DNA from: a virus
Taxonomy: Duplodnaviria > Caudoviricetes
Length of the DNA stretch: 64,000 nt
Virus record (IMG/VR): IMGVR_UViG_3300011116_001007
Strand: one strand, 5' to 3'
Shown: piece after piece, positions 16,698 through 42,631 of the stretch
How positions within the stretch are numbered: position 1 is the stretch's first letter
Layout of the letters: the number at the start of each line of letters is the position of its first letter
Notes under the pieces: model-generated
Told to the model about the DNA's origin: nothing
Databases searched by the model: none
What the model saw: the letters and a program-made list of their open reading frames with translations, nothing else
Made by a program: the position numbers and the translations under genes

Positions 16698-17147
16698 TTA
16701 CTTAGTGAAGTTGATCTCTGTTGTGATCTTCTTCAATCGATCATAGCGGAAACTGCGCCAGGCAGCCTGATCTAAATCGTAAACTCGCTGGGTCACAGGA
16801 TCAGGTTCTTTGCGCGGTTTTTTATTTTCGGCCAGTGTGTCTAGTCCATCTGGGTTAGCAGTAGAGGATTTGAAAATTGTGCCTACAGGTGCTGGCGGAA
16901 TTCTGCTGCTGTCCAGAGTGCATCGCATGTCACGTGTGGTGCCATCTGATTTCACAAACTGCACAGTGACTTCGCTGGTGGTCAACAGGCCCTTGACCCA
17001 AGCCCTTATTTCCGCTTGGCCTGCGGTGTCAGCTTCTTGATACTGCGTTCCAGGTGCATTTTTCAGCAAGCGAAACACTTCTGCTTTTTCCCAATCCATC
17101 AAATCCATAAGTTCTCCTCTAAAAGTTAATAAACGTTTTTTAATCAT
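16698..17147 (-). CDS. WYL_2/DUF2693-like (SH3-fold) T4-type protein
   Basis: VTVQFVKSDGTTRDMRCTL...VYDLDQAAWRSFR. Confidence 0.65.
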   Translation of the reverse strand: MIKKRLLTFRGELMDLMDWEKAEVFRLLKNAPGTQYQEADTAGQAEIRAWVKGLLTTSEVTVQFVKSDGTTRDMRCTLDSSRIPPAPVGTIFKSSTANPDGLDTLAENKKPRKEPDPVTQRVYDLDQAAWRSFRYDRLKKITTEINFTK

Positions 17148-17500
17148 GTCCATCTCAATGCTGCTATTGTAGCATACTTGGCATACTTTTGACTAATCTT
17201 TATGGTTAGACGATTGTCAGTAGCATCACGATCAGCCATGCCCCAATCCCAATCCCATTTTTGACGACCGACATGTTCTTCTAACCATGGGCGATAGTGA
17301 TCGTTTGGGTCACTGCTATCGACAGATGTTTTACTACCGTCTGGCATCCAATCTATATCTACCCACCCCCTGGGCCATGCTACATTGATTACAACTCCGG
17401 GCATAAATCGCCACCAGAGATGTTCTTTGATATTCAATCCGCAGGGCATCCAATAGTTTTGTCTAAAGAAGAAAAGACCTTTAATCTCACTCTTGCTCAT
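17144..17500 (-). CDS. LRW-array small protein 1
   Basis: Ends YATIAALRWT; ATGA-coupled at both ends. Confidence 0.75.
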   Translation of the reverse strand: MSKSEIKGLFFFRQNYWMPCGLNIKEHLWWRFMPGVVINVAWPRGWVDIDWMPDGSKTSVDSSDPNDHYRPWLEEHVGRQKWDWDWGMADRDATDNRLTIKISQKYAKYATIAALRWT

Positions 17501-17742
17501 GTCCACCTCAATATAAACCATGTTGCCAACTTAGGATCTTTAACTGTGATAGTGGGCACATATTTTGGTCCCAAGTCACGAGGGTCAAACGCTTCGTGTG
17601 GCTGTGGATAAACACGCTCACGCTTGTAGAACCAGGCATAATCGTAATTGTCAACAAGGCCAGTCATATTGCCTTTGCCCACATGTTTGTTTAACCATTC
17701 GGTACACCCTTCGGGCACACCTTGACGAAATTCTACTCTCAT
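17497..17742 (-). CDS. LRW-array small protein 2
   Basis: Ends LATWFILRWT. Confidence 0.75.
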   Translation of the reverse strand: MRVEFRQGVPEGCTEWLNKHVGKGNMTGLVDNYDYAWFYKRERVYPQPHEAFDPRDLGPKYVPTITVKDPKLATWFILRWT

Positions 17743-17990
17743 GTCCACCTCAATAAAAAGAATGTAGCATCACTACCTTCTTTGAAAGCAATCTTGCTGT
17801 CCCAACAATGACATTCAATTTTAGTTTCTTTTAACCAATCTTTCACATTACTAGACACACTAGGAATGTACCATGGATCTGGTATTTTAACAATAGTCCA
17901 ACCCATAGCATTGTATAGTATTTCGGTATCAATACTATCAGCTAAATCTTTAGTTAGTTTATTAAGATATTTGTGTTCTATATCCATCAT
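17739..17990 (-). CDS. LRW-array small protein 3
   Basis: Ends DATFFLLRWT. Confidence 0.75.
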   Translation of the reverse strand: MMDIEHKYLNKLTKDLADSIDTEILYNAMGWTIVKIPDPWYIPSVSSNVKDWLKETKIECHCWDSKIAFKEGSDATFFLLRWT

Positions 17991-18202
17991 AGCCACCTCA
18001 ACAAGAACCATGCAGCATGTTTTTCATCGCGGAACTCGACCACACCTTCGCCAAGATACCTCCACCCATCCTCAGACTGGCCACCGAATTGTTCAAAGCA
18101 CCAATCTATACAGGGACTCCATCCTTTATAATTTGAAGCGATTTTGGGATCATTGGGTACCGGCACACTGACTATATGCCATTCTGGCTGCGGGTATTTC
18201 AT
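17987..18202 (-). CDS. LRW-array small protein 4
   Basis: DWCFEQFG...FRDEKHAAWFLLRWL. Confidence 0.75.
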   Translation of the reverse strand: MKYPQPEWHIVSVPVPNDPKIASNYKGWSPCIDWCFEQFGGQSEDGWRYLGEGVVEFRDEKHAAWFLLRWL

Positions 18203-18399
18203 GACCACCTCAACAGAAACCAATCGTGGTTCTTTCTAACTTGAAACACATAGCCTGTGCTGCCTGAACTCAATAGAAAAGGATTGCAATCATTTTTATA
18301 CATCCAACTAGTAATTTCGTGCCAATCTTCTGTTTTCATACAACGGTAAACTGGATGATTGTTCCAACCTGGATATGATGTTTTCTCTACTTTTGTCAT
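18199..18399 (-). CDS. LRW-array small protein 5
   Basis: Ends HDWFLLRWS. Confidence 0.75.
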   Translation of the reverse strand: MTKVEKTSYPGWNNHPVYRCMKTEDWHEITSWMYKNDCNPFLLSSGSTGYVFQVRKNHDWFLLRWS

Positions 18400-18638
18400 G
18401 ACCATCTCAATGTAAAATGTGTGGCATCTTTTGCGTCCGAGAAATAGAATGTACTACCGGCCCACTCATTTTTTTGCAAACAACAATCACGCCTAGTATG
18501 TTCACTAACCCACCTAACCATTTCCGCAACTTGATCACACCAATCAGTCCAATCCATTCCCGGGCGTACTGTAAGATGTACCTTGTGATAATTCTTGTCA
18601 ATATCACGTTTTTCTTTTCTACGCTGTTTGCTATTCAT
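18396..18638 (-). CDS. LRW-array small protein 6
   Basis: Ends FSDAKDATHFTLRWS. Confidence 0.75.
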   Translation of the reverse strand: MNSKQRRKEKRDIDKNYHKVHLTVRPGMDWTDWCDQVAEMVRWVSEHTRRDCCLQKNEWAGSTFYFSDAKDATHFTLRWS

Positions 18639-18829
18639 GCGCCCCACTTCAGCAAGAACAACATCAGGTGCTTTTGCTTTTTAAAGTAAAAATAGCCGTT
18701 GGCTCTTTGGTGTTCACCAAATTTAAAAGTCTTAGTACACCAGCGATCTGCCTCAAGCCACTTATTGCCTTGGACAATTTTGTAGGGCATCTTGACTCGT
18801 TTGATACCGTAGTCAACAATCAGGGTCAT
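18635..18829 (-). CDS. LRW-array small protein 7
   Basis: RWCTKTF...LMLFLLKWGA. Confidence 0.75.
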   Translation of the reverse strand: MTLIVDYGIKRVKMPYKIVQGNKWLEADRWCTKTFKFGEHQRANGYFYFKKQKHLMLFLLKWGA

Positions 18830-19056
18830 GACCACCTCAACAAAAACAATGTAACATACTTTTCTTTATACAAGTATAACCAGCCACCGAGATAATCCCA
18901 ATGACGGTCATGCGTATGTGTAATAAATCCATTGGGTCCAAAAGTATCCCAGCACCATTCATGCACTTGTTTTATATTACTGCCCGGAGTAGTAAGGCTA
19001 AAATGCACATCCCATCTATCTAACTCGGGACGATGTATAATCTTGGGCAAAGTCAT
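18826..19056 (-). CDS. LRW-array small protein 8
   Basis: EWCWDTFG...YVTLFLLRWS. Confidence 0.75.
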   Translation of the reverse strand: MTLPKIIHRPELDRWDVHFSLTTPGSNIKQVHEWCWDTFGPNGFITHTHDRHWDYLGGWLYLYKEKYVTLFLLRWS

Positions 19057-19349
19057 GACCACTTCAACAAAAACAAAGTGCGGTCCCGTTCATCACGGAA
19101 CCAATACTTGTAATTACTGCCAACCCAACGAGCGTGTTCTACTGACCAATCAGACTCTCCCATTGTATCTATTACCCACTGGTCCATGCCCCACCACTCT
19201 GCCTCAGTGTAGTTTGATGGTCGAATCCAATAGGGCCATTTAGGTTGATTTTCAGCATAGCCAGTTTCAAGGCGTTTCACGTTGATTTCATCTATCCATT
19301 GTGTTGCCATTTTGGTTATCTGTTGTGGAGTCAATATAGCGTTACTCAT
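19053..19349 (-). CDS. LRW-array small protein 9
   Basis: Ends FRDERDRTLFLLKWS. Confidence 0.75.
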   Translation of the reverse strand: MSNAILTPQQITKMATQWIDEINVKRLETGYAENQPKWPYWIRPSNYTEAEWWGMDQWVIDTMGESDWSVEHARWVGSNYKYWFRDERDRTLFLLKWS

Positions 19350-19738
19350 CGCCGCATCTTGGATATGTCAATTGCTTCTTCGTCGCTGAACACAGGCACA
19401 GCATTGCTCTTGTGCATGGTAGCAATGCCTTTGACCTTGGTGCCTGTATACACTTTGGCAGGTGCCAACGCTGCCACACCACCGCCGGTGCCAAGACTGG
19501 GAATGTGAGCAGTACCTGCACGATCTGTGGCACCAGTCAAATTGTAAACCAAGGGTTCTGCTGCTAGAGCACGACGACGCTTCTTTTCTTCTGCAGCCAC
19601 ACCTTGACGTTTCAGCAGTTGTTTCCAGTCAGCTTCGAGTTCACGAGCCTTGCGAGCTTCAGCAGCATTACGGTATTTGAATTTACCCTTCTTCTTGCCA
19701 TTGAGGCTCAGCGCAGGGCCGCACATGTGCATGGTCAT
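19346..19738 (-). CDS. Conserved T4-like-phage hypothetical protein
   Basis: C-terminal YTGTKVKGIATMHKSNAVPVF; AGGAG SD. Confidence 0.75.
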   Translation of the reverse strand: MTMHMCGPALSLNGKKKGKFKYRNAAEARKARELEADWKQLLKRQGVAAEEKKRRRALAAEPLVYNLTGATDRAGTAHIPSLGTGGGVAALAPAKVYTGTKVKGIATMHKSNAVPVFSDEEAIDISKMRR

Positions 19739-19764
19739 AAAGATCTCCTGGTAGTCATGTGCTT

Positions 19765-19793
19765 ATTATAGCACAGCTCAAATTACCGGTCAA
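19765..19793 (-). promoter_or_regulatory. Sigma70-type early promoter
   Basis: TTGACC-N17-TATAAT. Confidence 0.85.
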
Positions 19794-19796
19794 CCG

Positions 19797-20099
19797 TTAT
19801 TTGAACAGGATCAGCGCCATCAAAACGGCTTGCACAATAAATCCCGAGCCCACAGTGATGATATTCAACATGTCTTTGAGCACCACCGCTCGCATGAACA
19901 ACAAGACCAGTCCAGCCCACAAGAACAATATCACGTCCAAACTAGGTGTTCGATCACTGAGTCCTGTCATCAGAGCCAGCAAAGTGGGCACAGTAGCAGC
20001 ATGTAACACTATGGCTGATAACCATCCTAAAGTTTCTGCACTCAATCTGGGCAAGTGTTCACCCAACCAGTCAATAATAGAACGAGATGCAAATATCAT
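19797..20099 (-). CDS. Small multi-TM membrane protein
   Basis: Three hydrophobic segments; ATGA-coupled to SleB. Confidence 0.65.
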   Translation of the reverse strand: MIFASRSIIDWLGEHLPRLSAETLGWLSAIVLHAATVPTLLALMTGLSDRTPSLDVILFLWAGLVLLFMRAVVLKDMLNIITVGSGFIVQAVLMALILFK

Positions 20100-20668
20100 G
20101 TTTTTTCTCCGTAAAAGATATGATGTCCAATTTTCTCTAATTTGGGTTTGTTCCAACCCGGATTCACGTAGTCAGCGTGATAGTACAGTGCGTTTTTCAG
20201 TCCCGGCAAGCGGAATCCTTCCAACAACACTTTTTTGGCCACTTCCTCACTTTCCCTCCACAGGGGTCGGTGTATGGCTTTGCCAGGATGTCCTGATTCA
20301 CAGAACCAGCTGAATTGGCACACTACTTTTTCGTAGAATACGTTTTTCTGATATACCACTGCACATACAGAATTGGCAAAACGTCCAGAGTCCACACGGT
20401 TCAGAGTGACCTGCGCCACACCCACCTTGCCTTCAAACGGTTCGTTGGCAGCTTCCCAATAGATGTTTCTTGTGAGGCATTCCAGTTCTCGGGTGCGTTG
20501 TGCTGCACTGATATAAGTTGCGGATAGACCATCTGGTTGTTCACGCAGGGCATTGAGTCGATTATTGGTCACCACGTACACCACATAGACCACTGCAATC
20601 AGTCCTAGGACTTTGAGTAGATATGAACTGTAGCGTTGTGCCAAAAGGGATATTTGATTTGCTTTCAT
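20096..20668 (-). CDS. Cell wall hydrolase, SleB/Hydrolase_2 family, with N-terminal TM
   Basis: CLTRNIYWEA.NE...GKVGVAQVTLNRV...CQFSW...YYHADYVNP.W...GHHIFY. Confidence 0.9.
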   Translation of the reverse strand: MKANQISLLAQRYSSYLLKVLGLIAVVYVVYVVTNNRLNALREQPDGLSATYISAAQRTRELECLTRNIYWEAANEPFEGKVGVAQVTLNRVDSGRFANSVCAVVYQKNVFYEKVVCQFSWFCESGHPGKAIHRPLWRESEEVAKKVLLEGFRLPGLKNALYYHADYVNPGWNKPKLEKIGHHIFYGEKT

Positions 20669-20748
20669 GGTAGTGTTACTTAATGAAATGGGCAAAATCA
20701 CCCGAAAGATCGGGCCAAAACAGTATGGTTTCGGCCGATCCACTGTGT

Positions 20749-20777
20749 ATTATAACACAGACTGGTCGAATTTGCAA
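20749..20777 (-). promoter_or_regulatory. Sigma70-type promoter for the SleB operon
   Basis: TTGCAA-N17-TATAAT. Confidence 0.65.
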
Positions 20778-21529
20778 ACCGGTATTGGCAACATCTTGTG
20801 CAAATTTGTTGCGCGAATCTCACGGTAGCGACGAAGATTTTTTTTCTCTTGAGGAGTGATATGGGGGAGAAAAAAACCGGTGTCTTGAAGCATGGCCTGT
20901 TCCAGTTCAGGATAGGTCATGCCCAGTTGATCCTCATCGGTGCGACCATCCTCCCACAATCCATCTGTGGGCGGTGCATCGATGATTGACTGCAACAGTC
21001 CCAGTTCACGACCCATGGCCCACACCTCTGTTTTCATGCAGTCGCCAATGGGGCTGATGTCCACACCACCATCGCCGTATTTGGTAAAGAAGCCCACACC
21101 AAAGTCTTCCACTCGATTGCCTGTGCCCACCACAATACCCCGCTGGCTTTGTGCAATCTGATACAGGGTCATCATGCGTAGTCTAGCACGACTGTTGGCA
21201 TAGGCCAGTTCATTGTACACACCGTCCTCTGTGGCTTTTTCAAACTGTTTGAAGGCCGGGGTGAGATCAATTGTTTTGTGTAGCACGTTGTTGGGGAATC
21301 GTTCCGCCAGCCAGGCGCCGTGAGCAACACTGAGACTATGAGTTTTTTTACTTTGGCGTATGGGCATGCTGACTGCATGTACATCCAGTCCAGTCATTGC
21401 ACACAAGGTACTGACCACAGCAGAATCAATGCCACCTGATACTCCCACTACCAACGTGTTAATTTTGGCACTCCGGGCATAACTTTTGATCCACTTCACA
21501 ATAGTGGTAACACGTTGTTTAGGTGTCAT
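20750..21529 (-). CDS. nadE: NH3-dependent NAD+ synthetase
   Basis: GVSGGIDSAVV, N.RARLRM, GTGN..E...GFFTKYGDG, PT.GLW...TDEDQLG. Confidence 0.93.
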   Translation of the reverse strand: MTPKQRVTTIVKWIKSYARSAKINTLVVGVSGGIDSAVVSTLCAMTGLDVHAVSMPIRQSKKTHSLSVAHGAWLAERFPNNVLHKTIDLTPAFKQFEKATEDGVYNELAYANSRARLRMMTLYQIAQSQRGIVVGTGNRVEDFGVGFFTKYGDGGVDISPIGDCMKTEVWAMGRELGLLQSIIDAPPTDGLWEDGRTDEDQLGMTYPELEQAMLQDTGFFLPHITPQEKKNLRRYREIRATNLHKMLPIPVCKFDQSVL

Positions 21530-22092
21530 ACTTTTACTTTTGGCATTTTTTTCAATGTTTCCCACATCAGGGCTTTCTCTTTGCATTTCTTCTCCAGTTT
21601 CTTATATCGTTCGCCCAGTCGGCGTAGGTCATCCCAATCTTTTTCTAACTCGGCGTTGGGCGTGAGTATGTTCAATCGCTCTTCTACCCGTTCCATCCAC
21701 TCAGTCATGCTCTTGCCATTGATCTTGATGTCTGCATCTTTACCTTCTACAGAAATTATAGTACTGGGTTTGTTACCGTAAACGCCGCCAATTGTGTATG
21801 TGCCGCCGCTGCCAGCTACACCAATGGTGTTAATAGTATTGTTACTATAATAAGCACCAGCGCCTGAGCCGCCTGCTAGAGAAACTACTGGATTTGTATC
21901 CCATACTGCACCAGTTGCTGAGCTGGTTCCACCGCTAATGGTAACATTAGCATCGCCCCAATCGATTGAGCTTATTTGCACAGGATTGTCCACAGCCTGT
22001 TTGGCCAAATCACGCATTTTTTCCAGCTGGATGTTTAGCTTTTCAGATAGCTCTTCCGTCGAAGGGTCTTTTAATGAAACAGCCACGGTCAT
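21526..22092 (-). CDS. Hypothetical protein with Gly/Ser-rich linker and C-terminal coiled coil
   Basis: 188 aa ORF, coupled to nadE. Confidence 0.7.
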   Translation of the reverse strand: MTVAVSLKDPSTEELSEKLNIQLEKMRDLAKQAVDNPVQISSIDWGDANVTISGGTSSATGAVWDTNPVVSLAGGSGAGAYYSNNTINTIGVAGSGGTYTIGGVYGNKPSTIISVEGKDADIKINGKSMTEWMERVEERLNILTPNAELEKDWDDLRRLGERYKKLEKKCKEKALMWETLKKMPKVKV

Positions 22093-22093
22093 A

Positions 22094-22282
22094 TTACACC
22101 TTGACAGCTAGGGCTTCTTTTTCTGCGGTGATTTCTTTGCGGCGTTCTTTGATGCCTTTGCTCATTTCTTGCAGGGCTTTTCTTGCTCTGGCAGCAGCAG
22201 CCTTGACACCTTTGCCTGTGAATTTTTCGTTTTCGGCAATGTAAGATTCGTAAGCAGCGACGATTTGTTCATGATTGGTCAT
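22094..22282 (-). CDS. Histone H1-like Hc1-family small basic protein
   Basis: ENEKF..KGVKAAAARARKALQEM.K..K.RRKE. Confidence 0.6.
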   Translation of the reverse strand: MTNHEQIVAAYESYIAENEKFTGKGVKAAAARARKALQEMSKGIKERRKEITAEKEALAVKV

Positions 22283-22520
22283 TTGGGTTCTCCTTGATTA
22301 TGACGATGGCTATGTTATCAGCAGCAGCCCGTTCCAGTTCGGCACTGTAGCTGTGTACATTAAATTCGATAACACGACTGCGGCGGTCGCCAATCCAATC
22401 TTCCAACAATTGGTCTTGTATCATTGGATGATCAGTTTGTGTGGCACCAGCAGCCGACAAAGCCTCATGCCAAGTATATTGTTTGATCTCTTTACCTGGT
22501 GCAATGAAGTTTATTATCAT
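22269..22520 (-). CDS. Hypothetical protein (probably leaderless)
   Basis: ATG 6 nt after TATAAT. Confidence 0.6.
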   Translation of the reverse strand: MIINFIAPGKEIKQYTWHEALSAAGATQTDHPMIQDQLLEDWIGDRRSRVIEFNVHSYSAELERAAADNIAIVIIKENPNDQS

Positions 22521-22526
22521 ACAGTA

Positions 22527-22555
22527 ATTATACTGGCCTGCTGCCGGGTTGTCAA
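22527..22555 (-). promoter_or_regulatory. Consensus sigma70 promoter
   Basis: TTGACA-N17-TATAAT. Confidence 0.85.
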
Positions 22556-22583
22556 TAAAATCACCTGGATTTGGCACTCTTGC

Positions 22584-22832
22584 TCAGTCGAGATATATGT
22601 GTCGACGAAGCCAAGTATCCCATATGGTCAAGTTTGATATGTCATGACTCCATGTGAGCTTGAACTGTTCAAACGCACGTTGTTCATGCAACATCATTCT
22701 ATTGCCTGTGGCATGTGCGTGATCAATTTTGTTATCACGTATCCAAGAACGAAATACTGATTCTGCTTGTTTTTGATTGTGCAAAATTATAATGTACAGT
22801 GGTTCGACTGCGCGATAACTGGCTATGGACAT
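22584..22832 (-). CDS. Hypothetical protein
   Basis: 82 aa; contains an F.LTW motif reminiscent of the LRW family. Confidence 0.6.
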   Translation of the reverse strand: MSIASYRAVEPLYIIILHNQKQAESVFRSWIRDNKIDHAHATGNRMMLHEQRAFEQFKLTWSHDISNLTIWDTWLRRHIYLD

Positions 22833-23096
22833 TTAGTGGAAAGTGGTTCCCGGTGGGGGCGGAGTGGGCTCGATGTTATTTACTTGACTGAATATTACAG
22901 GAAATCTTTCATCCAATTCAATAAAGGAATCATCGTATTCAGCAGCCGTTTCATTTTCTACTCCCAGCAACCGCATGATGGCACCTGTGTGTATTTTTCT
23001 AATGCCAATGTCGTACAGCACTGCCATCAGGTTGATCATGGTCTCGTGGATTTTGTCTTTGTATTGTTCGGGGTCTTGCATACAATTAATTATCAT
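22833..23096 (-). CDS. Hypothetical protein
   Basis: 87 aa ORF; start uncertain. Confidence 0.6.
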   Translation of the reverse strand: MIINCMQDPEQYKDKIHETMINLMAVLYDIGIRKIHTGAIMRLLGVENETAAEYDDSFIELDERFPVIFSQVNNIEPTPPPPGTTFH

Positions 23097-23103
23097 TCAA
23101 AAC

Positions 23104-23128
23104 GAAAAAGCGGCCATTAAGGCCGCTT
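23104..23128 (-). terminator. Intrinsic terminator
   Basis: AAGCGGCC-5 nt loop-GGCCGCTT followed by T-tract on minus strand. Confidence 0.8.
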
Positions 23129-23150
23129 GCTGACTGACGCAAAGTTGCGT

Positions 23151-23519
23151 TTAGGCTGCAGGAGAGCTCACTGCATCTAAAATCTGCTTGGCAGTCACGC
23201 CTTTGGCAGAGCTCTTGGCTTTGACGCCGGCGCTGGCCTGCACTTTGACTTCGCCTTTCTTGGCGATCTTGCTTTTCTCTGCCAGCTTGTTAGCCACAGC
23301 AAAGCCGGCCTCACCATCAGTGATGCCCAAGGTCTGCAGGTGTTGCAGAGCTTCCAGCTTGGTCATTGCACGGGGCAATTCAACCAAGTTGATATTGGTA
23401 CATCCTGCCTTGTTTAGGATCTTGACGCGAGCCACTAGGTCGTTAGCGAAACGAGCCTTGGCGGTGCCATCAGCGTTGGTTGCGGTACCTGCTACGGTAA
23501 AAGTTTTTTCATTTGACAT
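23151..23519 (-). CDS. Conserved hypothetical protein with Lys/Ala-rich tail
   Basis: TFTVAG...ARFAND..ARVKIL.K.G..NINLVELP..MTK. Confidence 0.75.
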   Translation of the reverse strand: MSNEKTFTVAGTATNADGTAKARFANDLVARVKILNKAGCTNINLVELPRAMTKLEALQHLQTLGITDGEAGFAVANKLAEKSKIAKKGEVKVQASAGVKAKSSAKGVTAKQILDAVSSPAA

Positions 23520-23578
23520 AAGTTGCCTTTCTAGTTGCCTGTTGTTAAAAAATCATGCTGTGTTTGCAGCATATCTAA

Positions 23579-23607
23579 AGTATAACACAAGGTGGAATAG
23601 AGGTCAA
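23579..23607 (-). promoter_or_regulatory. Sigma70-type promoter
   Basis: TTGACC-N17-TATACT. Confidence 0.8.
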
Positions 23608-23630
23608 CCACTTTGTGCTATTTAGATCTT

Positions 23631-23759: not shown

Positions 23760-23768
23760 ATCAATTCC

Positions 23769-24397: not shown

Positions 24398-24424
24398 TGT
24401 CGTAGGTTAGATCTTTTATCTTGC

Positions 24425-28557: not shown

Positions 28558-28803
28558 TCACAATGAAAATTTCTGCAACACTCGTCCGCTTTCTTCAAAG
28601 CCAGTTTCGTGCAGTGAAATTTCCATCAGTTCGTGCAACAACACCTGTTTCAGGGCATGCACTTCGTAGCGTTCTTTTGCAGTGAGTTCTTCAAACCAAG
28701 ATTCAAATTCTTCCTGGCTTTGTAACTGCCACATGGTGTCCAACAATCGGCATTGACGCACGGTAAGGTCGGTGATGCTTATGTTATTCATGGTCAACTC
28801 CAT
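28558..28803 (-). CDS. Hypothetical protein
   Basis: About 78 aa ORF. Confidence 0.65.
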   Translation of the reverse strand: MELTMNNISITDLTVRQCRLLDTMWQLQSQEEFESWFEELTAKERYEVHALKQVLLHELMEISLHETGFEESGRVLQKFSL

Positions 28804-28991
28804 TTCAATTGATAAAACGTTGCTAGTGCAGGATCTCGAAAATGAAATATCACAGTTCGATGACGGTTAATGTCATCGGGCGGCACGTATGTCCATGTGA
28901 AATCATATCCCTGAATCAGTCCCGACTGCTCCAGTTGAGTCTTGAGCTCTAGACCCTGCTGTGGACTCATGTTGAAAGTGATTGAATGCAT
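28794..28991 (-). CDS. Dispersed LRW-family small protein
   Basis: Ends FHFRDPALATFYQLKWS. Confidence 0.65.
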   Translation of the reverse strand: MHSITFNMSPQQGLELKTQLEQSGLIQGYDFTWTYVPPDDINRHRTVIFHFRDPALATFYQLKWS

Positions 28992-35272: not shown

Positions 35273-35278
35273 GCTGTA

Positions 35279-35307
35279 ATTATAGCATGAAATAGATTAC
35301 TGGTCAA
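35279..35307 (-). promoter_or_regulatory. Sigma70-type promoter (leaderless start)
   Basis: TTGACC-N17-TATAAT-N6-ATG. Confidence 0.85.
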
Positions 35308-35897
35308 CCACGCTTGTCTATGATTTTGTCAGCCAGTCCGTATGCAACCGATTCGCTAGCACTCATGAAAAAGTCACGTTCCATGTCCCGTAGCAATTCT
35401 TCATAGGTTTTGCCTGCGGTGTTGTGCCGGACATAAATTTCGGTAAGATACTGTTTCATCTTTTGTATCTCTTGTGCTTGAATTTGAATGTCGGTGGCCT
35501 GGCCTCTTGCACCACCTGATGGTTGGTGAATCATATGTCGAGCATGTGGCAAGATGTGTCGCTTGCCTGCTGCACCGGCTGTGGCCAACAACGACCCCAT
35601 GCTGGCTGCTTGACCCATCACAATGGTATGAATATCGCATTTGATAAACTGCATGGTATCATAGATGGCCATGCCTGCTGTGACACTTCCGCCTGGGCTG
35701 TTGATGTACAAGCTGATGTCTTTGTCAGAATTTTCACTTTCTAAAAACAACAATTGCGCCACAATCAAGCTGGCACTGTGTTCTGACACTTCTCCGTCTA
35801 GCATGATAATGCGGTCACGTAGCAGTCGGCTGTAGATATCATAGCTGCGCTCGCCCTTGCTGGTTTGTTCTAAAACGATTGGTACTAAAGTTGACAT
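35304..35897 (-). CDS. clpP: ATP-dependent Clp protease proteolytic subunit
   Basis: [33 protein letters not shown] (Ser), MIHQP (His), ERD (Asp). Confidence 0.95.
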
Positions 35898-35991
35898 GGT
35901 GTTCCTTGTTGGTCGATTGTGCTATTTTACAGTGTATTTTATCTAATAGCAAGACATTTTGGAAAGCAACTTGTTCTTCGCTAAATACCAC

Positions 35992-37581
35992 ATGAGAGAT
36001 TTATTAGACTTGCTGGACAAAGTTGCCTTGCCATTGGCAGAAGGTGTGGGGCTTGCCAACCGCAAACCCGGCGAAAAATTCAAAAACAGTGTAGGAGACG
36101 TGGTCACGTTCCAGGGGCTGGAATTTTATCCCGAATCGGGTCGATTTGCCACTCCTGAAGAACTGCAAGCAGGAGTGGATTCTGTGTTGGCCACCAAACA
36201 GATTGATGCTACCCAGATACATTGGGTCAACACCCCTAACAAAAGTGCAGGTGCATTCAGCCTGGCCACATTCACTGGAGAAGATGGCACACCTTATTAT
36301 CTAGGCCGTTGGTCCGGAGCAAACAGTCCCAACCGTGCACAGAACAAGTTTGCACACGATGACATTCCAGGCGGATTTAAATATCAAAGCGGTGCAGGTG
36401 TCAAAGAAAACACTGGATACAAACCCAGCGAAATACTGACACAATTCCAAGACAACACACCCGAATCAATATTGCAACAAATCGTTGCCAAGTTTGGCGA
36501 CGGCAGTGACGAAGCTGTGGCGGCGCAGACTTTTATCAGTTCAGACATTCCTTGCAAGATACCAAAAGGAAACATGAACCCCGATGCGTTCCGCGATTAC
36601 TTCTGTGAAATGTTGCAACCCATAGCCTTGGTCATGGGCAAGAATGTCACAGGCAATGCTGCTGAGGCTGCTGACATCTTCTTTGGCAGCAGCGGTTATG
36701 CTGATTGTACCATCAGCTTTAACACCAATACCATTGGTGGCTTGTATGATAGTTTGCTGGTGAATCCCGACGGTCGCCAGATAAAATTATCCAGCAAGGG
36801 TAAAAATGGTGCCAGTGCCAGTGTTACCAATCTATTGAAATCTGTAGAAGAACTGGCAAACACACCCAATGGCAAACAACTGTTAAACAAACACCAAGAA
36901 GTTATAGAAATTTTAAACATCATCAACCGAGACGGTCACTTTGGTGCTCCTTTGACCCTGGCTGTAAAGTACAAGATTATTGATCCAAAAGAAGCTGCAC
37001 AGATTCCCAAGCTCAAAGGCCTAGGACCCAAAGACACTGTGGTAGGGGCAGGTATATTGAGTCCAAAACTAGAAAAATTATATACCAATCGCAAGAGCAA
37101 AGACCCCAAGCGAGTGATTCCCCTAGAGCACATGACTGCCAGCATTGCATACAACGTGGCAGACTATGTGAACAAGAATACTGACTTTGGAAAAGCAGCT
37201 TCGGAAATCTTGAACAATGCCGCCCTGGTCCAGGTGTACACAAATACTTCAGTCAGTGCCGACACCATTACCATTACCAAGATGGATGCAGTGTATCCTA
37301 GTAAAACAGTTACTGGTGTGTATCTAGATGCCAGCAAAGTTTATTTCAGCACAGGCGGCAAAGGCAATTTTACATTTACCATCATGAAGAATGGCGCCAC
37401 TGAAAAAGATGTGAACCCCATGGATCCAGTGGATGAGCCAGATGATACCTCGCCCACTACCACTGCTGATCTAGATGCAGAAACTAATAGGCCCAGATTG
37501 ACTGGGCCGGGTGCTCGAGCAGCTAGATCAACAGCAGCGCCCAAAATGGATTTGGCCACTGTTGGTCGTCAACGTCGTTGA
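35992..37581 (+). CDS. Large late hypothetical protein (possibly capsid-internal)
   Basis: TAAATA 4 nt before ATG; N-terminus MRDLLDLLD...LAE. Confidence 0.7.
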   Translation: MRDLLDLLDKVALPLAEGVGLANRKPGEKFKNSVGDVVTFQGLEFYPESGRFATPEELQAGVDSVLATKQIDATQIHWVNTPNKSAGAFSLATFTGEDGTPYYLGRWSGANSPNRAQNKFAHDDIPGGFKYQSGAGVKENTGYKPSEILTQFQDNTPESILQQIVAKFGDGSDEAVAAQTFISSDIPCKIPKGNMNPDAFRDYFCEMLQPIALVMGKNVTGNAAEAADIFFGSSGYADCTISFNTNTIGGLYDSLLVNPDGRQIKLSSKGKNGASASVTNLLKSVEELANTPNGKQLLNKHQEVIEILNIINRDGHFGAPLTLAVKYKIIDPKEAAQIPKLKGLGPKDTVVGAGILSPKLEKLYTNRKSKDPKRVIPLEHMTASIAYNVADYVNKNTDFGKAASEILNNAALVQVYTNTSVSADTITITKMDAVYPSKTVTGVYLDASKVYFSTGGKGNFTFTIMKNGATEKDVNPMDPVDEPDDTSPTTTADLDAETNRPRLTGPGARAARSTAAPKMDLATVGRQRR

Positions 37582-37584
37582 CGT

Positions 37585-38151
37585 TTACTGCGCTGAGTCT
37601 AATTCTTTAAACGCTTCGGTGCTGCGTGTTGCGGCACGGTCTTTGAGAATCAATTGATCTTTGCGTGTTTGCAATGCATTGGCTTCGCCGGTGGGCAACG
37701 CTACCAAAGCATAGCTACGAAAGCGACTGCCTTCGGCCATGCGTTTGATTTCTTTGGTTTCTACACCAGTGATGTCCACTCCGGGGCAAACACTACGGAT
37801 GGCCAATTCAGAAAGTTCATGCGTGGATTCTGACGTTTCTTGCATGAACATCTTGGCCTGCTGGCTGACTCGGCCTCCGGCTGCCATACAGATTTTGCCG
37901 TATGCAAACAGTTTGGCCTTGTAGTCGGCCATGCTCATGTCTGAGCTCACAGCAGTACCGTTGGCATACACTGCATTTTTGCTGGCTGGCAGGTCGGTCA
38001 TCCACGCAGGTGCTTTGGCAATAGACTTTTCCACGTGGGCCTCACGTTTGACTTCCACAGCGGCTGCACGTTTCTCATAGTCATCTTTGGGGGCGCTGGA
38101 GCAGGCTGCAATCACAGCCGCCACCGGAAGCAATACAAAAAGTTTTTTCAT
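37585..38151 (-). CDS. Lipoprotein (LPP20-like)
   Basis: Lipobox IAAC; P.WM...AVYA.G.AVS. Confidence 0.7.
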   Translation of the reverse strand: MKKLFVLLPVAAVIAACSSAPKDDYEKRAAAVEVKREAHVEKSIAKAPAWMTDLPASKNAVYANGTAVSSDMSMADYKAKLFAYGKICMAAGGRVSQQAKMFMQETSESTHELSELAIRSVCPGVDITGVETKEIKRMAEGSRFRSYALVALPTGEANALQTRKDQLILKDRAATRSTEAFKELDSAQ

Positions 38152-38160
38152 TTCAAGTCC

Positions 38161-38283
38161 TTACTTAGATTTAATCCATTCACCAGCTTTGCTCAAGTCT
38201 TGGCCTGCGCCGCTGACTGCTCCGCCTACTGTACCACATGCAGACAAGGCTGCAATTAGGATTGTTACCAACACCAGTTTCAT
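38161..38283 (-). CDS. Entericidin EcnA/B-like small lipoprotein
   Basis: Manual translation MKLVLVTILIAALSACGTVGGAVSGAGQDLSKAGEWIKSK; AGGAG SD. Confidence 0.65.
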   Translation of the reverse strand: MKLVLVTILIAALSACGTVGGAVSGAGQDLSKAGEWIKSK

Positions 38284-38312
38284 AGGATACTCCTAAAAAG
38301 TTACGATAATGT

Positions 38313-38341
38313 ATTGTAGCACAAAAATCAATTGTGGTCAA
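38313..38341 (-). promoter_or_regulatory. Sigma70-type promoter
   Basis: TTGACC-N17-TACAAT. Confidence 0.8.
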
Positions 38342-38902
38342 TCAGAATTTGTCAACCACTACCCAAAGGTTGTCCTGAACTTGGCAGATCACACCGCGGA
38401 AAGTTCGGATGTCTCGGCCTGTCCAGTTGGGTTCCAGGAACATTTGGCATTGAGCACCGTTGTGCCAGAATCTTCCAGGGTAATCTGGGTTGGGTCGGAA
38501 CTGGTGCAGCGGTGCCATGGTACCAGGATTGGTGCGTTTCAACACATCCAAATCAGGTTGGTCGGTGCAGATCATGGTTTTTTCGCTGATGGTTTGCACA
38601 CGACCCACACGCTCGCGTACTTCATCTTCGGCTATCTTGACTGCACGGGCACAGGCTTCTTCTCTGGGGCGATCTCCTGCCCATTCGTATTCGCCAAACG
38701 CACTGTGCCAGTCGTTGTTGATTCTCACGCGGAACGTGACCATGCACTTTCGGCCACCATTCAGTGCAGGAACCACTTCGGGTCGAATCACACTGCGTTC
38801 AGCAATTGCCACAGTGGTTCTACTCACTGTGCGATCGTTTAGCACACAGTCTGCCAAGGTCAATGCCGGCAGCAGGGTCAAGATCACAGCTAGTTTTTTC
38901 AT
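38342..38902 (-). CDS. Exported Cys-rich hypothetical protein
   Basis: Signal peptide MKKLAVILTLLPALTLA; 6 Cys. Confidence 0.7.
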   Translation of the reverse strand: MKKLAVILTLLPALTLADCVLNDRTVSRTTVAIAERSVIRPEVVPALNGGRKCMVTFRVRINNDWHSAFGEYEWAGDRPREEACARAVKIAEDEVRERVGRVQTISEKTMICTDQPDLDVLKRTNPGTMAPLHQFRPNPDYPGRFWHNGAQCQMFLEPNWTGRDIRTFRGVICQVQDNLWVVVDKF

Positions 38903-39246
38903 GGGCATTCTCTCGCCAACATCTGTAAATGATAGTCAATGTACCAATTGGTCTGACCGCTGTTGATATCTTGCAGTTGTTGATGTTGTGCAGGATTGGT
39001 AAATTTTAGCAAAGGGTTCATGGCCACTTCTAATCCGGCCAGAATTCGTTCATCTTTGGTTTGTCGCATGTTCTGCAACATGGCCACTTGATTGGCTTTT
39101 TGGCGGCAGTCTCTTACAAAATGATTCAATTGATCATGCGCCATTGGCACCCGGTCTGGTCGAGACGCGGCACAGCCACTAAACAGGCTGGCAGCGATAA
39201 CGCATGTGCCAAATACGACTGCGGATCTCAGAGCGAGCATTTTCAT
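38899..39246 (-). CDS. Putative lipoprotein
   Basis: Lipobox-like LFSGC; signal peptide overlaps the upstream gene. Confidence 0.55.
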   Translation of the reverse strand: MKMLALRSAVVFGTCVIAASLFSGCAASRPDRVPMAHDQLNHFVRDCRQKANQVAMLQNMRQTKDERILAGLEVAMNPLLKFTNPAQHQQLQDINSGQTNWYIDYHLQMLARECP

Positions 39247-39424
39247 ATGTTTCCTGATTTTCAAAAGGTTGTCGTGGAACTTGAGATTGTGAATTTAACC
39301 ATTCAATTATGGCCACACGATTGGCACAGTCATTAGGCATGGCCTGTACACTGGGTGGTGGCCGTTGTGCAATTGGCATGGCACAGCCCGACAATGCCAA
39401 CACAACAGGCAGTAGATATTTCAT
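39179..39424 (-). CDS. Putative lipoprotein
   Basis: MKYLLPVVLALSGC. Confidence 0.7.
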   Translation of the reverse strand: MKYLLPVVLALSGCAMPIAQRPPPSVQAMPNDCANRVAIIEWLNSQSQVPRQPFENQETYENARSEIRSRIWHMRYRCQPV

Positions 39425-39645
39425 ACTTGTTTATTTGGATTGGTAATCTTGGCATTCACGCAGGTACCTTCCAAGATGGTATATTTGCCTTGACCGGCTG
39501 TTTCAGCCACTTCCAGCATGTGGATCTTCTGAGTGTCAATACTGGCTTTGCATTGTGCCTCATTCCGGTAATAATTCTGGGCCTGCATGAAGTTGCAGTT
39601 GCTATCAAAGCATATGAACAACACGGGTATGAAAATTTCTAACAT
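39421..39645 (-). CDS. Small exported Cys-containing protein
   Basis: Hydrophobic N-terminus; C...C...C...C. Confidence 0.6.
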   Translation of the reverse strand: MLEIFIPVLFICFDSNCNFMQAQNYYRNEAQCKASIDTQKIHMLEVAETAGQGKYTILEGTCVNAKITNPNKQV

Positions 39646-39666
39646 GATGCATGTCCTTGTGTTTGT

Positions 39667-39695
39667 ATTATAGCACTGATTGAATTACTGGTCAA
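39667..39695 (-). promoter_or_regulatory. Sigma70-type early promoter
   Basis: TTGACC-N17-TATAAT. Confidence 0.85.
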
Positions 39696-39873
39696 CTCCA
39701 AAGTGCATGTCGATCAGTCGATCAATGCTACGTCCCAGCGGGTTATTGGCTCGTGCCACAACCGTAACACATTCTTGAATGATCAGCTCGGCAAACTTTT
39801 CGTAATTGAAATTAAGGCCAAATTCATTGTGTTCCCAGCATTGTGGTTCAAGTTCTTTGATTAGTTTTCTCAT
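39685..39873 (-). CDS. MNERI-family member (divergent)
   Basis: IKEL...EKFAELIIQEC...HFGV. Confidence 0.75.
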   Translation of the reverse strand: MRKLIKELEPQCWEHNEFGLNFNYEKFAELIIQECVTVVARANNPLGRSIDRLIDMHFGVDQ

Positions 39874-39961
39874 GCTCTATCCACCCTGGCATCTATGTTG
39901 GAACGATGACACATGTACAGTACTCCCACAATGTATCCTACTAAAAATCCCCAGAAAAAGT

Positions 39962-40210
39962 TCATAGTTCAACTTTCAAACGATTAATGCCTTCATGCGG
40001 GCAGTACAGTTCACTGAGTCTCCAGCATTCCATATACTCGTCGTGTTCCTGCTGGGTCACATATCTAAAAGGAAATGAATCTAAATTTTTATCTCGCAAT
40101 CGTTGCAAAATTTTCTCAGGAGCATCCCATTCAAACACACAATCAGCAGGATGATTGGCCAATGCTGCGGTCAATCCAGCTTTGATATCTCGTAATCTAA
40201 GAAACCTCAT
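39962..40210 (-). CDS. Hypothetical protein
   Basis: ATGA-coupled to the last GVEE junction. Confidence 0.65.
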   Translation of the reverse strand: MRFLRLRDIKAGLTAALANHPADCVFEWDAPEKILQRLRDKNLDSFPFRYVTQQEHDEYMECWRLSELYCPHEGINRLKVEL

Positions 40211-40425
40211 TCTTCAACACCATATTCTCGTTTAAGATCATCTAATGCTTTGCGAACCTTTTCAGCAACTGGCCGATACTTCACAGGGCCGATAGGATGA
40301 TAGTTCCATTCTGTGCCCTTCCACACTCTATTACCATTCAATAGTCGATCAACCTCTGCTAGGATTTCAAAGCGAGGATCAGCCCACATCTTGATTTGAT
40401 TATCAGGAACGACGGGTGTGTTCAT
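40207..40425 (-). CDS. Array cargo protein with GVEE tail
   Basis: Body unrelated to the MNERI family; ends YGVEE. Confidence 0.7.
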   Translation of the reverse strand: MNTPVVPDNQIKMWADPRFEILAEVDRLLNGNRVWKGTEWNYHPIGPVKYRPVAEKVRKALDDLKREYGVEE

Positions 40426-40520
40426 AGTCCATGCCTGGCTAGAATATTACTCAACCACATCAATCCTAAACCAAATAGAATAGTACTAATGATTAGCAAT
40501 TTGATTTCAGTTCGGTTCAT
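40422..40520 (-). CDS. Array cargo: 32 aa TM peptide
   Basis: Manual translation MNRTEIKLLIISTILFGLGLMWLSNILARHGL; ATGA-coupled at both ends. Confidence 0.6.
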   Translation of the reverse strand: MNRTEIKLLIISTILFGLGLMWLSNILARHGL

Positions 40521-40765
40521 TCTTCAACTCCGAAATGTTCTTTAATCTCTAGAATAGGATGTAAGTATTCTTCACCAGGTCTGCTCATTCTAACAGTGTA
40601 TGGACTAATAATATCAATACATTCCTGCACAATCAACTCGGCGAACTTTTCTAAATCTTGGTCATTGATGCTATCGGAGCGCGGACCTTCCCATCGTTTC
40701 ATTCCAAAATCACCGTTTCGCACAAGCCCAGCCTCAAGGGCAAGTTGTTTAATTCGTTCGTTCAT
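40517..40765 (-). CDS. MNERI-family member
   Basis: MNERIKQLA...EKFAELIVQEC...EHFGVEE. Confidence 0.8.
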   Translation of the reverse strand: MNERIKQLALEAGLVRNGDFGMKRWEGPRSDSINDQDLEKFAELIVQECIDIISPYTVRMSRPGEEYLHPILEIKEHFGVEE

Positions 40766-40863
40766 TCTTCAACTCCGGTTGCTGGACAGAATGGTGTATG
40801 CCCATTCTTGTTGGGATTTCTGTAACAATGCTTGCACCAGTTATAATCTTTAGGTTGGTTCAT
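40762..40863 (-). CDS. Array cargo: 33 aa Cys/His peptide with GVEE tail
   Basis: Manual translation MNQPKDYNWCKHCYRNPNKNGHTPFCPATGVEE. Confidence 0.6.
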   Translation of the reverse strand: MNQPKDYNWCKHCYRNPNKNGHTPFCPATGVEE

Positions 40864-41072
40864 TCTTCAACTCCGATACATTGTTCCACATCCTCTAAGA
40901 TACGCTTGAGTTCGTCAATGTTCATTTCCAAAAACTCTGTCGTATAGATGGCAGCAATTTGCTCAACATTTGTTACATCCTTAGCATACCTTTTAACTCG
41001 ATACTCGGTCAGCATCTTTTCCTTGCCGGCGATTGTGTTACGCAGGTTCTCTGCTAGGGTTTGGATGTTCAT
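40860..41072 (-). CDS. Array cargo coiled-coil protein with GVEE tail
   Basis: MNIQTLAENLR...CIGVEE. Confidence 0.7.
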   Translation of the reverse strand: MNIQTLAENLRNTIAGKEKMLTEYRVKRYAKDVTNVEQIAAIYTTEFLEMNIDELKRILEDVEQCIGVEE

Positions 41073-41251
41073 TCTTCAACTCCGAAATGTTCTAAGATAC
41101 CATTAGGTCCATCAAACGCAAGTGTAGCACACTCACGCACAATCAACAAGGCGAACTTTTCTTCGTCAAACCCAAACGCTAGTAACTCACCATTTACACC
41201 GTAAGTTTCAATTCGGCACTGTTCAGCAAATTTTTCAATTCGTTCGTTCAT
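41069..41251 (-). CDS. MNERI-family member
   Basis: MNERIEKFA...EKFALLIVREC...EHFGVEE. Confidence 0.8.
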   Translation of the reverse strand: MNERIEKFAEQCRIETYGVNGELLAFGFDEEKFALLIVRECATLAFDGPNGILEHFGVEE

Positions 41252-41487
41252 TCTTCAACACCAAAACGTTTTTTGATCCGATATGCGGCACTGCGGACAC
41301 CGGTACTATAGGGGCCATAATCATCCTCATCATCCAACATGCCAACACATTCTCTCACAATCAACTCAGCAAATTTTTTTGTAAATTCAGATGGTACATA
41401 CATTTTATCAACATCTCCGTCCGGATCGTTACCATTCATAACGATAGACATAGCCTGAAGATTAAGTTCTTTAATTCGTTCGTTCAT
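41248..41487 (-). CDS. MNERI-family member
   Basis: MNERIKELN...KKFAELIVREC...RFGVEE. Confidence 0.8.
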   Translation of the reverse strand: MNERIKELNLQAMSIVMNGNDPDGDVDKMYVPSEFTKKFAELIVRECVGMLDDEDDYGPYSTGVRSAAYRIKKRFGVEE

Positions 41488-41723
41488 TCTTCAACTCCAA
41501 AATGTTGTTTAATAACAGAATTACAATCCATCATTTTATCAACGTGAGGTTGACCTTTTACTAAGGCCGCGCATTCTTTCACAATCAACTCGGCGAACTT
41601 TTCTATTTGCTCTAATCCTTCTTGTTCAGTGTCGGTTAGGGCATGGATAGTACGATAGTAATGTAACAATAGTGCTGGCTCAAGTTTAGCCTGTAGAGCA
41701 AGTTCTTTAATTCGTTCGTTCAC
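41484..41723 (-). CDS. MNERI-family member (GTG start)
   Basis: NERIKELA...EKFAELIVKEC...QHFGVEE. Confidence 0.8.
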   Translation of the reverse strand: MNERIKELALQAKLEPALLLHYYRTIHALTDTEQEGLEQIEKFAELIVKECAALVKGQPHVDKMMDCNSVIKQHFGVEE

Positions 41724-41953
41724 TTGTTATTCTCCAAATAAAACATACCAACACGAACTAACGCTTCGGCGTGTTCACGGTCTTTTGGCAACACCACTGC
41801 TTCACCATTGATAAGTTTGTTATACTCACTAGCACATTCCCGAACAATCAACTCGGCGAACTTTTCCAACTGAAGGGCATCAATGTGCTGATAGAATTCT
41901 TTAGGCTTAAAGATACCAGCCTGTTGAGCAAGTTCATCTATTCGTTCGTTCAT
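41720..41953 (-). CDS. MNERI-family member (alternative C-terminus)
   Basis: MNERIDELA...EKFAELIVREC. Confidence 0.8.
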   Translation of the reverse strand: MNERIDELAQQAGIFKPKEFYQHIDALQLEKFAELIVRECASEYNKLINGEAVVLPKDREHAEALVRVGMFYLENNK

Positions 41954-42111
41954 CGTAATTCCTCTAATGCTCGTTTAACATGCTTCTTTTTGTATTGTGG
42001 GAATGCTTTGATGATGTCCTCATCAAACAAATAGTGCGGATTGCTTCGTTGATGTTCACCGATGAATTCTTCAACCTCATCTAGTAGCTTGGCAAATTTT
42101 TCGTCTTTCAT
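41950..42111 (-). CDS. Array cargo hypothetical protein (53 aa)
   Basis: Manual translation MKDEKFAKLLDEVEEF...RALEELR; ATGA-coupled. Confidence 0.6.
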   Translation of the reverse strand: MKDEKFAKLLDEVEEFIGEHQRSNPHYLFDEDIIKAFPQYKKKHVKRALEELR

Positions 42112-42386
42112 TGTTCAACTTCCTCTACTGGTTGGTTAGGGATGTTTTCTGTATCGCCATCTTTAGCAAAAGTAAATCCCAAACCTAACATTATTTCAGT
42201 CTCTGATGGTGTACAGTTGCCGCGAAAAATAAAAATTCTACGGGTTAGGTTGTCGTTAGAATAATAAATCCTGTAGGACACTCGGGGCACATTTAATTTT
42301 TCTGAAAGTATAGCCAACGATATCTCATCACCCCAATCTTCGGTGATAGATTCCCGTTGTTGTTCATACATAAAATCTTTCATCAT
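42108..42386 (-). CDS. Array cargo hypothetical protein
   Basis: 92 aa; ATGA-coupled at both ends. Confidence 0.65.
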   Translation of the reverse strand: MMKDFMYEQQRESITEDWGDEISLAILSEKLNVPRVSYRIYYSNDNLTRRIFIFRGNCTPSETEIMLGLGFTFAKDGDTENIPNQPVEEVEQ

Positions 42387-42631
42387 TCTTCAACTCCGAA
42401 ATGTTTCAGTAATTCTTCTGGCTCAGGATGCCAAGCGTTGTTGCTATCATCATAACCAGAAATATCTTCAATAAACTTAGCACATTCCCGAACAATCAAC
42501 TCGGCGAACTTTTCGTTATAGTGTTGAAACCATGCTTGGTCAAAGGTACGGCGATCTGCCACCCCTTCGGTGGTAATGTCATTGATTGGTTGAAATGCCT
42601 CAAGAGCAAGTTCTCGAATTCGTTCGTTCAT
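42383..42631 (-). CDS. MNERI-family member
   Basis: MNERIRELA...EKFAELIVREC...KHFGVEE. Confidence 0.8.
   Translation of the reverse strand: MNERIRELALEAFQPINDITTEGVADRRTFDQAWFQHYNEKFAELIVRECAKFIEDISGYDDSNNAWHPEPEELLKHFGVEE

Follow-up and report, generated by a model that had tools for sequence, protein, structure and literature searches.

Two arrays of overlapping mini-genes

The 64,000-nucleotide (nt) stretch of an uncultured Caudoviricetes virus analysed here (IMG/VR record IMGVR_UViG_3300011116_001007; hereafter the window) carries two arrays of small genes whose products end in conserved C-terminal motifs, namely LRW in array 1 and GVEE in array 2, and the codons of these motifs probably serve as the ribosome-binding site (RBS) of the next gene. 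Both arrays lie in a region (16-44 kb) where the genes are all on the minus strand and densely packed (Table 1).

The open reading frames (ORFs) of array 1 have only a C-terminal block in common, ...(F/A)(L/I/T)L(R/K)W-x-stop, which is present in 9/9 consecutive ORFs and encoded by (T/C)TG ARR TGG NNA TGA, the first 15 bases above every one of the nine stops. An ATGA stop/start overlap occurs at all nine junctions, with the A of the penultimate codon plus TG making up the ATG of the next gene. GAGGTG, a Shine-Dalgarno (SD) string formed with an AGG codon, was found in five copies (stops 18826, 18199, 17987, 17739 and 17497), with GAGG at -9; two copies carry AGA (18396 and 17144) and two AAG (19053 and 18635), giving a weaker SD or none. 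Arg was AGG in 5/7 window LRW tails versus a background of 9.4% (p = 1.3e-4). A lone LRW-family copy elsewhere in the window (gene 28794-28991) has GGAG six bases ahead of the next ATG, read as W-S-stop.

Array 2 is built from members of another family, named MNERI after its first residues, and from unrelated small ORFs. Eight of its ORFs end in GG(A/T) GTT GAA GAA TGA, i.e. G-V-E-E-stop, with GGA in six (stops 42383, 41484, 41069, 40860, 40762 and 40517) and GGT in two (41248 and 40207). GGAG begins at -11 and is separated from the overlapped ATG by seven bases. In the window alone, Gly was GGA in 9/11 cases (background 21%, p = 3e-5) and Val was GTT in 11/11 (background 23%, p = 8e-8). Besides the Cys-rich ORF listed in Table 1, two further non-MNERI ORFs start with MN and end in GVEE, one carrying the exact cassette (40860-41072) and one the GGT variant (40207-40425). 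In the MNERI copy with a different tail (41720..41737), GGAG is retained in another codon phase, 8 bases before an overlapped GTG start. The first MNERI-like copy (42779-43078) reads ...HFG-MNPNE... and continues for about 30 further in-frame residues (GGA ATG AAT...); this form also occurs in locus L037 and is thus conserved, and it looks like a stop-less junction fused to the next frame.

An earlier note on this DNA had described these tails, and its coordinates and strings proved correct on re-reading. Its claim that the LRW codons TTG AGG TGG place GAGGTG before the overlapping ATG applies to five of the nine array-1 tails and fails in the four with AGA or AAG; likewise, GGA GTT GAA GAA TGA with GGAG 7 nt before the ATG describes six of the eight GVEE tails and not the two with GGT. 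Its account of the lone copy at 28794, where TGG AGT TGA holds GGAG before the next ATG, was confirmed in the sequence.

ATGA overlap is the most frequent junction type throughout the whole window and hence is not peculiar to the arrays. About half of the non-overlapping window genes have AGGA, GGAG or AGGAG at -9 to -13, and the SDs of both arrays sit at this normal distance of the phage. A core SD 4-mer at -15 to -7 was detected at 11/18 array junctions versus 4.9% of random positions, and in about one third of the other real-looking minus-strand overlaps of the window. Since overlaps and SDs are seen window-wide, the design itself is a general packing habit of the phage; the array-specific feature is that the SD-bearing codons are the same codons that encode the conserved C-terminal peptide of each family.

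Table 1. Positions of the array features, junctions and predicted promoters (window numbering, apart from the loci L042 and L079)
Feature	Position	Strand	Description
Array 1	17144..19349	-	nine tandem LRW-family mini-genes, 64-118 aa, ATGA-chained
Array-1 stops	19053, 18826, 18635, 18396, 18199, 17987, 17739, 17497, 17144	-	sequence
Strong array-1 junction, representative	17739..17753	-	TTG AGG TGG ACA TGA; SD GAGGTG; overlapped start 17742
Last array-1 copy tail	17144..17158	-	TTG AGA TGG ACA TGA; ATGA overlaps start (17147) of 16698-17153
Lone LRW-family copy junction	28789..28808	-	gene 28794-28991; TTG AAA TGG AGT TGA CC ATG; next start 28791
Array 2	39685..43078	-	MNERI...EKFAELIVREC...HFGVEE mini-genes interspersed with unrelated small ORFs; nearly all ATGA/GTGA-chained
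Junction cassette GGAGTTGAAGAATGA	42383..42397	-	read G-V-E-E-stop
Identical GGAGTTGAAGAATGA copies	41484-41498, 41069-41083, 40860-40874, 40762-40776, 40517-40531	-	sequence
GGT variants of the cassette	41248-41262, 40207-40221	-	sequence
33-aa Cys-rich ORF, not MNERI family	40762..40863	-	starts MN, ends T-G-V-E-E with exact cassette
MNERI copy with other tail, F-Y-L-E-N-N-K	41720..41737	-	TTG GAG AAT AAC AAG TGA
MNERI gene starts, examples	42631, 41953, 41723, 41487, 40765	-	ATG AAC GAA CGA ATT kept as nucleotides
Internal EKFAELIVREC block	41830..41865	-	36 nt identical to 42478-42513; codon-frozen across phages; crossover point
Array-terminal copy tail	39667..39699	-	GGA GTT GAC CAG TAA (H-F-G-V-D-Q-stop)
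Other array-terminal copies with the same design	L042 ~3418-3460; L079 ~6477-6520		codons GTT GAC (A/C) form -35
Predicted early-type promoter	43263..43291	-	5' of array 2; 11/12 matches, TTGACC, 17 bases, TG-extended TATAAT
Predicted promoter, same type	19765..19793	-	5' of gene 19346-19738 and array 1

Codon choice in the tails of homologous genes

A degenerate-peptide scan from a five-member sub-alignment placed the MNERI family at at least 370 places in viral contigs, of which 80 loci were kept. A hidden Markov model search of the ORFs from these loci, all in other viral contigs, recovered 310 members, usually in arrays, which formed 198 single-linkage clusters at 55% identity, and codon sharing was computed on 193 dereplicated representatives. 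Since gene starts reading M-N always yield ATGA, the overlap test demanded a real upstream ORF. ATGA ends 235 of 308 MNERI homologs, and an SD was present in 54/64 family-family junctions outside the window.

In the 162 homologs from outside the window whose tails read G-(V/I)-(E/K)-E-stop, Gly was GGA in 159 and Val was GTT in 153, and the internal Glu was GAA in 137/138, while the adjoining Phe was TTC in 107 and TTT in 55. At variable columns of the 193 representatives the probability of sharing a codon was at chance (0.34 versus 0.33 and 0.53 versus 0.53), so that synonymous sites are saturated. Within the tail, the observed versus expected probabilities were 0.88 versus 0.31 for Gly, 0.83 versus 0.32 for Val, and 0.89 and 0.94 versus 0.66 for the Glu codons; the adjacent Phe was synonymously free (0.51 versus 0.51). 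A general codon-pair effect behind GGA was excluded, because Gly before Val inside long ORFs is GGA only 20% of the time.

The codon also depends on what follows it. When unique members were divided by the presence of a start codon opening an ORF 8-14 nt after the Gly codon, GGA was used in 204/212 (96%) tails with a start at RBS distance versus 19/35 (54%) without (Fisher p = 3e-10; GGA background 20-28%), with GGT or GGC common in the latter. Locus L019 reads HFG-FGVEE, and there the first Gly is GGT and the second GGA. GVEE tails with an ATGA overlap outnumbered those without by 162 to 1. In an AlphaFold2 (AF2) model of the MNERI family (91 sequences; mean predicted local distance difference test, pLDDT, 81), ...HF closes the last helix and G-V-E-E follows as coil. 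We conclude that the GVEE tail is without structure and dictated chiefly by the DNA, its peptide being largely a by-product of selection on nucleotides.

The LRW family, which occurs alongside the MNERI family in many of the same contigs, presented a different picture. Among 41 dereplicated tails, Arg was AGG in 18/34 versus 8-9% in long ORFs (p = 8e-11) and versus 4% for internal Arg-Trp pairs there. Conserved Asp and Lys columns further upstream were synonymously free, and the constraint increased toward the gene end, being strongest in the last four codons: Leu was TTG in 20/29, Arg was AGG in 16/26, the last codon was nearly always NNA, and the stop was TGA in 30/32. At canonical spacing AGG or AGA was used in 21/24, and CGN in 5/8 of the tails with RW further from the start; counted by distance, the tails within 12 nt of a start had 23 AGR versus 3 CGN (versus further tails, Fisher p = 0.009), in samples that are small and partly related. 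LRW belongs to a 17-residue conserved block, (F/Y)xF(R/K)(D/E)ExDA(T/A)x(F/W)x(L/I)(R/K)W, and lies within the C-terminal helix (residues 65-75) of an AF2 model with a mean pLDDT of 80. Its place inside a helix and a conserved block therefore marks it as a genuine protein motif, in which only the codon choice and the free last residue serve the RBS. Thus, as modelled, LRW is a real structural helix motif into which the SD is written via codon choice, the peptide not being DNA-driven. Two grades of one design are apparent, i.e. a DNA signal that dictates the peptide (GVEE) and a signal written into a structural motif (LRW). A search with one LRW protein returned only close orthologs; Pfam and PHROGs gave no family for ten array proteins, and neither AF2 model had a Foldseek match in the Protein Data Bank below E = 0.7.

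At the 3' ends of both families, codons are shifted from gene-body usage toward SD-forming ones, GGA from 20-28% to 96% and AGG from 4-9% to 53%. The earlier note's expectation of biased Arg and Gly codons was therefore borne out (GGA 204/212, AGG 18/34), and homologs were found to keep LRW and GVEE with codons far from random. Its suggestion that the motifs are partly selected at the DNA level stands for GVEE; for LRW it stands for the codon choice and falls for the peptide, a helix motif.

The string was not confined to one frame or one family. GGAGTT(G/A)A(A/G)(G/A/T)AATG occurred 203 times in the 80 loci versus 0 in reversed sequence, and in 199/203 occurrences its ATG opened an ORF of 25 codons or more. 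Thirty copies lay in another frame or between genes, with endings such as ...FRS-stop, ...WS-stop, LLRWS-stop and FGVE-stop plus TAATG. In L026 (8539-8563), an LRW-family gene ends TTG AGG TGG AGT TGA AGA ATG A, so one piece of DNA, read in two frames, is both the LRWS tail and the GGAGTTGAAGAATGA cassette. The exact 15-mer GGAGTTGAAGAATGA was found in 244 unique in-frame copies, 25 of them (23 clusters) on non-family proteins including zinc-ribbon mini-proteins, a conserved PDN...DPRF...PVKY family and a 105-aa family. Downstream of it, the ORF was unrelated to the MNERI family in 170/240 cases (144 clusters), which fits the earlier proposal that the tail would serve whatever lies behind it.

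Array ends, frozen blocks and rival explanations

Scans with consensus promoters and terminators returned one strong promoter 5' of each array, a single terminator-like hairpin in array 1 (19081-19103) and no terminator-like site inside array 2, by which both arrays are predicted to be long polycistronic early-type operons of tiny genes. The gene behind the last LRW tail (16698-17153) encodes an unrelated WYL_2 (Sm-like SH3 barrel) protein (PF10902, E = 1e-9), and the second gene downstream of array 1 (16473-16697), which seems to belong to the same transcription unit, encodes a homolog of translation initiation factor IF-1 (PF01176, E = 7.7e-22). The ClpP of the window phage (gene 35304-35897) is nearest to the ClpP of the ~490-kb jumbo phages Atu_ph07 and Phosso, and a megablast search of INPHARED phages with 6 kb of the window returned no near DNA match. 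The idea that the GGAG SDs are targets of a T4-like early-mRNA nuclease was examined through RegB (PF10715), for which five related contigs (168-300 kb, partial records) gave no match, the control genomes being equally matchless.

At the array ends the same codons coincide with a different signal. Array-terminal MNERI copies end H-F-(G/E)-V-D-(I/Q)-stop in three independent phages, the window (39685) included, and in these tails GGAGTTGAC(A/C) holds the -35 hexamer of the next promoter. In the window tail (39667..39699), TTGACC is the -35 of a strong predicted promoter (TTGACC, 17 bases, TATAAT with TG) for the next unit. In these copies, which the earlier note had named for the codon comparison, the tail DNA matches a promoter -35 rather than an RBS; the final residues of MNERI proteins thus appear to track whichever DNA signal is needed there.

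The overall best explanation, to which we assign a probability of about 0.78, is that in both arrays each mini-gene has its translation-initiation region within the four or five codons that close the preceding gene. In array 2, GGAGTTGAAGAATGA would supply an SD (GGAG), a 7-nt A/T-rich spacer, the ATG and the overlapped TGA stop, the upstream frame spelling G-V-E-E-stop; selection would act on the nucleotides, leaving the peptide tail mostly a by-product. In array 1, Arg would preferably be AGG, which yields (G)AGGTG together with TGG, and the final codon would be NNA, which yields ATGA together with the TGA stop. Having terminated at TGA, a ribosome may then re-initiate at the ATG that overlaps the stop, or a fresh 30S subunit may bind there, in either case assisted by the SD. 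The shared short string could also act as microhomology at which whole genes are inserted, lost or swapped, and any ORF landing behind a tail would acquire a working RBS.

A number of observations count against this explanation. The RBS function is inferred from sequence only. The spacer TTGAAGA is frozen to the same degree as GGAG, beyond what SD pairing needs. In the window, a good SD is missing from four of the nine LRW tails (those with AGA or AAG) and from two of the eight GVEE tails (those with GGT), yet their genes persist. GGA is still used in 54% of tails without a nearby start (background 28%), several of which look like recent cassette derivatives. Copies without the tail block would leave a recombining pool too, so the GGA position test separates RBS selection from homogenisation incompletely. 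Finally, an RBS in the upstream gene cannot account for the internal EKFAELIV block, which is frozen across the 193 representatives though far from any start codon; another force at the DNA or RNA level therefore acts on the MNERI family and may add to the tail constraint.

This internal motif, GAA AAG TTC GCC GAG TTG ATT, is frozen less strongly than the tail (Ala GCC 0.66 versus 0.30, Leu TTG 0.66 versus 0.21). The first eight MNERI codons (ATG AAC GAA CGA ATT AAA GAA CTT) are frozen as well (Arg CGA 0.72 versus 0.25), with CGA at 87% versus a background of 17% and AAC at 90% versus 36%, regardless of the upstream gene. The start side of the MNERI initiation region is thus, judging by its codons, likewise under DNA- or RNA-level constraint, and frozen codons alone are therefore no proof of an RBS. 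RNA pairing between the frozen blocks, sought by eye, was limited to a 6-bp complement (GAACTT / AAGTTC).

Recombination could have produced such a pattern if gene ends and middles were kept DNA-identical as homology patches between paralogs or co-infecting phages (concerted evolution, modular shuffling), with SD content incidental or secondary. The frozen block distant from any start speaks for it, as does the identical 36-nt block in two window paralogs. So do comparisons between relatives: L081 and L082, close relatives of the window phage, differ by one gene at one place and two genes at another, with both breakpoints exactly at TGG-NNA-TGA junctions where the flanking alignments overlap by ~17 nt. 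L002 and L003 are mosaic and ~95% identical in shared segments; the points at which their homology starts or stops are GGAGTT...AATGA and the internal AAGTTCGCC block, and the sequence exchanged between these points is unrelated. The breakpoints that fall exactly at junctions fit the earlier note's idea of how arrays grow, and they feed the recombination account too. Conversion tracts, however, would not skip single bases, and the Phe codon beside the frozen GGA is free (0.51 versus 0.51), as are Val and Arg within the internal block. With an unrelated downstream gene in 170/240 cases, just 15 nt of shared homology remain; an ORF follows the motif in 98% of cases whatever the frame, and GGAG keeps the phage's usual SD distance. 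Moreover, recombination requires prior identity and may be its consequence, not its cause. Because free sites adjoin frozen ones, only 15 nt are shared and the string is nearly always a start site, we consider recombination an improbable source of the tail; for the internal block it stays the best available explanation.

An explanation at the protein level fares worse. GVEE might be a C-terminal peptide tag (a degron, sorting or partner-binding signal) placed on unrelated proteins, given that the phage encodes ClpP (35304-35897), that the same four-residue tail is found on at least 23 unrelated protein clusters and that it is an exposed coil in the AF2 model, as is usual for tags. A tag would leave its codons free, but GGA is used at 96% and GTT at 97%; copies of the nucleotide string lie in other frames and between genes as well, GVEE is found nearly exclusively with an ATGA overlap (162 versus 1), and array-terminal copies end in GVD(I/Q) where the DNA is a promoter -35, which together make a tag highly improbable. 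Slimmer still is the chance that LRW and GVEE are conserved for protein function alone with coincidental SD-like strings. This would suit LRW, which sits in a predicted helix within its 17-residue block and where Lys replaces Arg in 7/41 tails, an exchange conservative for the protein that destroys the SD. It is already contradicted by the codon statistics, namely AGG enriched at least six-fold relative to background and thirteen-fold relative to internal R-W pairs, GGA at 96% versus 20-28%, and a TGA stop with an NNA last codon almost always, and by the frame-shifted and intergenic cassette copies.

Beyond an RBS encoded in the preceding gene, a bolder extension can be put forward tentatively, namely that GGAGTTGAAGAATGA is a mobile translational 'socket', with MNERI genes as leader cistrons delivering ribosomes to whatever ORF recombines in behind and the family's remaining codon-frozen blocks belonging to the same machinery of shuffling. 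If so, jumbo phages could capture and at once express hundreds of unrelated small genes.

Meaning and relation to known systems

The annotator's 'conserved C-terminal protein motif' GVEE would be, for the most part, a translated RBS and hence a case of dual coding, and anyone searching for motifs or building families among phage ORFans should be prepared for such artefacts. The junctions may offer giant-phage accessory arrays a simple route to gain, lose and swap tiny genes while newcomers stay translatable. The 15-mer would also give synthetic biology a small, natural junction for coupled translation, one that evolution has already placed before at least 144 downstream gene clusters.

Literature searches found the general principle and no description of the MNERI family or the cassette. 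A gene's 3' end can carry the SD of the next gene, skewing codon and stop-codon use there (Eyre-Walker 1996, as summarised in PMC8410138), and 4-nt overlaps favour TGA (Palleja et al. 2009, PMC2784483). The ATGA overlap, the TGA preference, the SD in the last upstream codons and the skewed 3' codons of this principle (Eyre-Walker 1996; PMC2784483) are all found here. Unlike the weak genome-wide bias it describes, the arrays show a near-invariant 15-nt string in hundreds of genes from many phages, and this cassette fixes a four-residue peptide tail, falls together with the conserved C-terminal motif of a family, and is also carried by unrelated proteins and read in other frames. Translational coupling by termination-reinitiation at overlapping stop/start codons operates in E. 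coli trpE-trpD and trpB-trpA and in many phage operons. The arrays resemble it in combining ATGA with an upstream SD inside one predicted transcription unit, a resemblance known here from sequence alone.

The PeSLs of T4-type phages (Arbiol et al. 2010, PMC2839356) are mobile intergenic cassettes among small non-essential genes, each combining a sigma-70-like promoter with a stem-loop terminator. They share with the junctions studied here a repeated short regulatory sequence at which whole genes are inserted, deleted or replaced between close relatives; unlike the PeSLs, the cassette is a 15-nt translational signal inside coding sequence, with no promoter or stem-loop. If the socket idea held, it would be the translational counterpart of these promoter cassettes. 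Against this background the arrays are a clean, well-replicated case and a modest extension of a known principle, not a new mechanism; new here are the numbers on codon choice, position and frame, together with the way in which the LRW and GVEE families differ.

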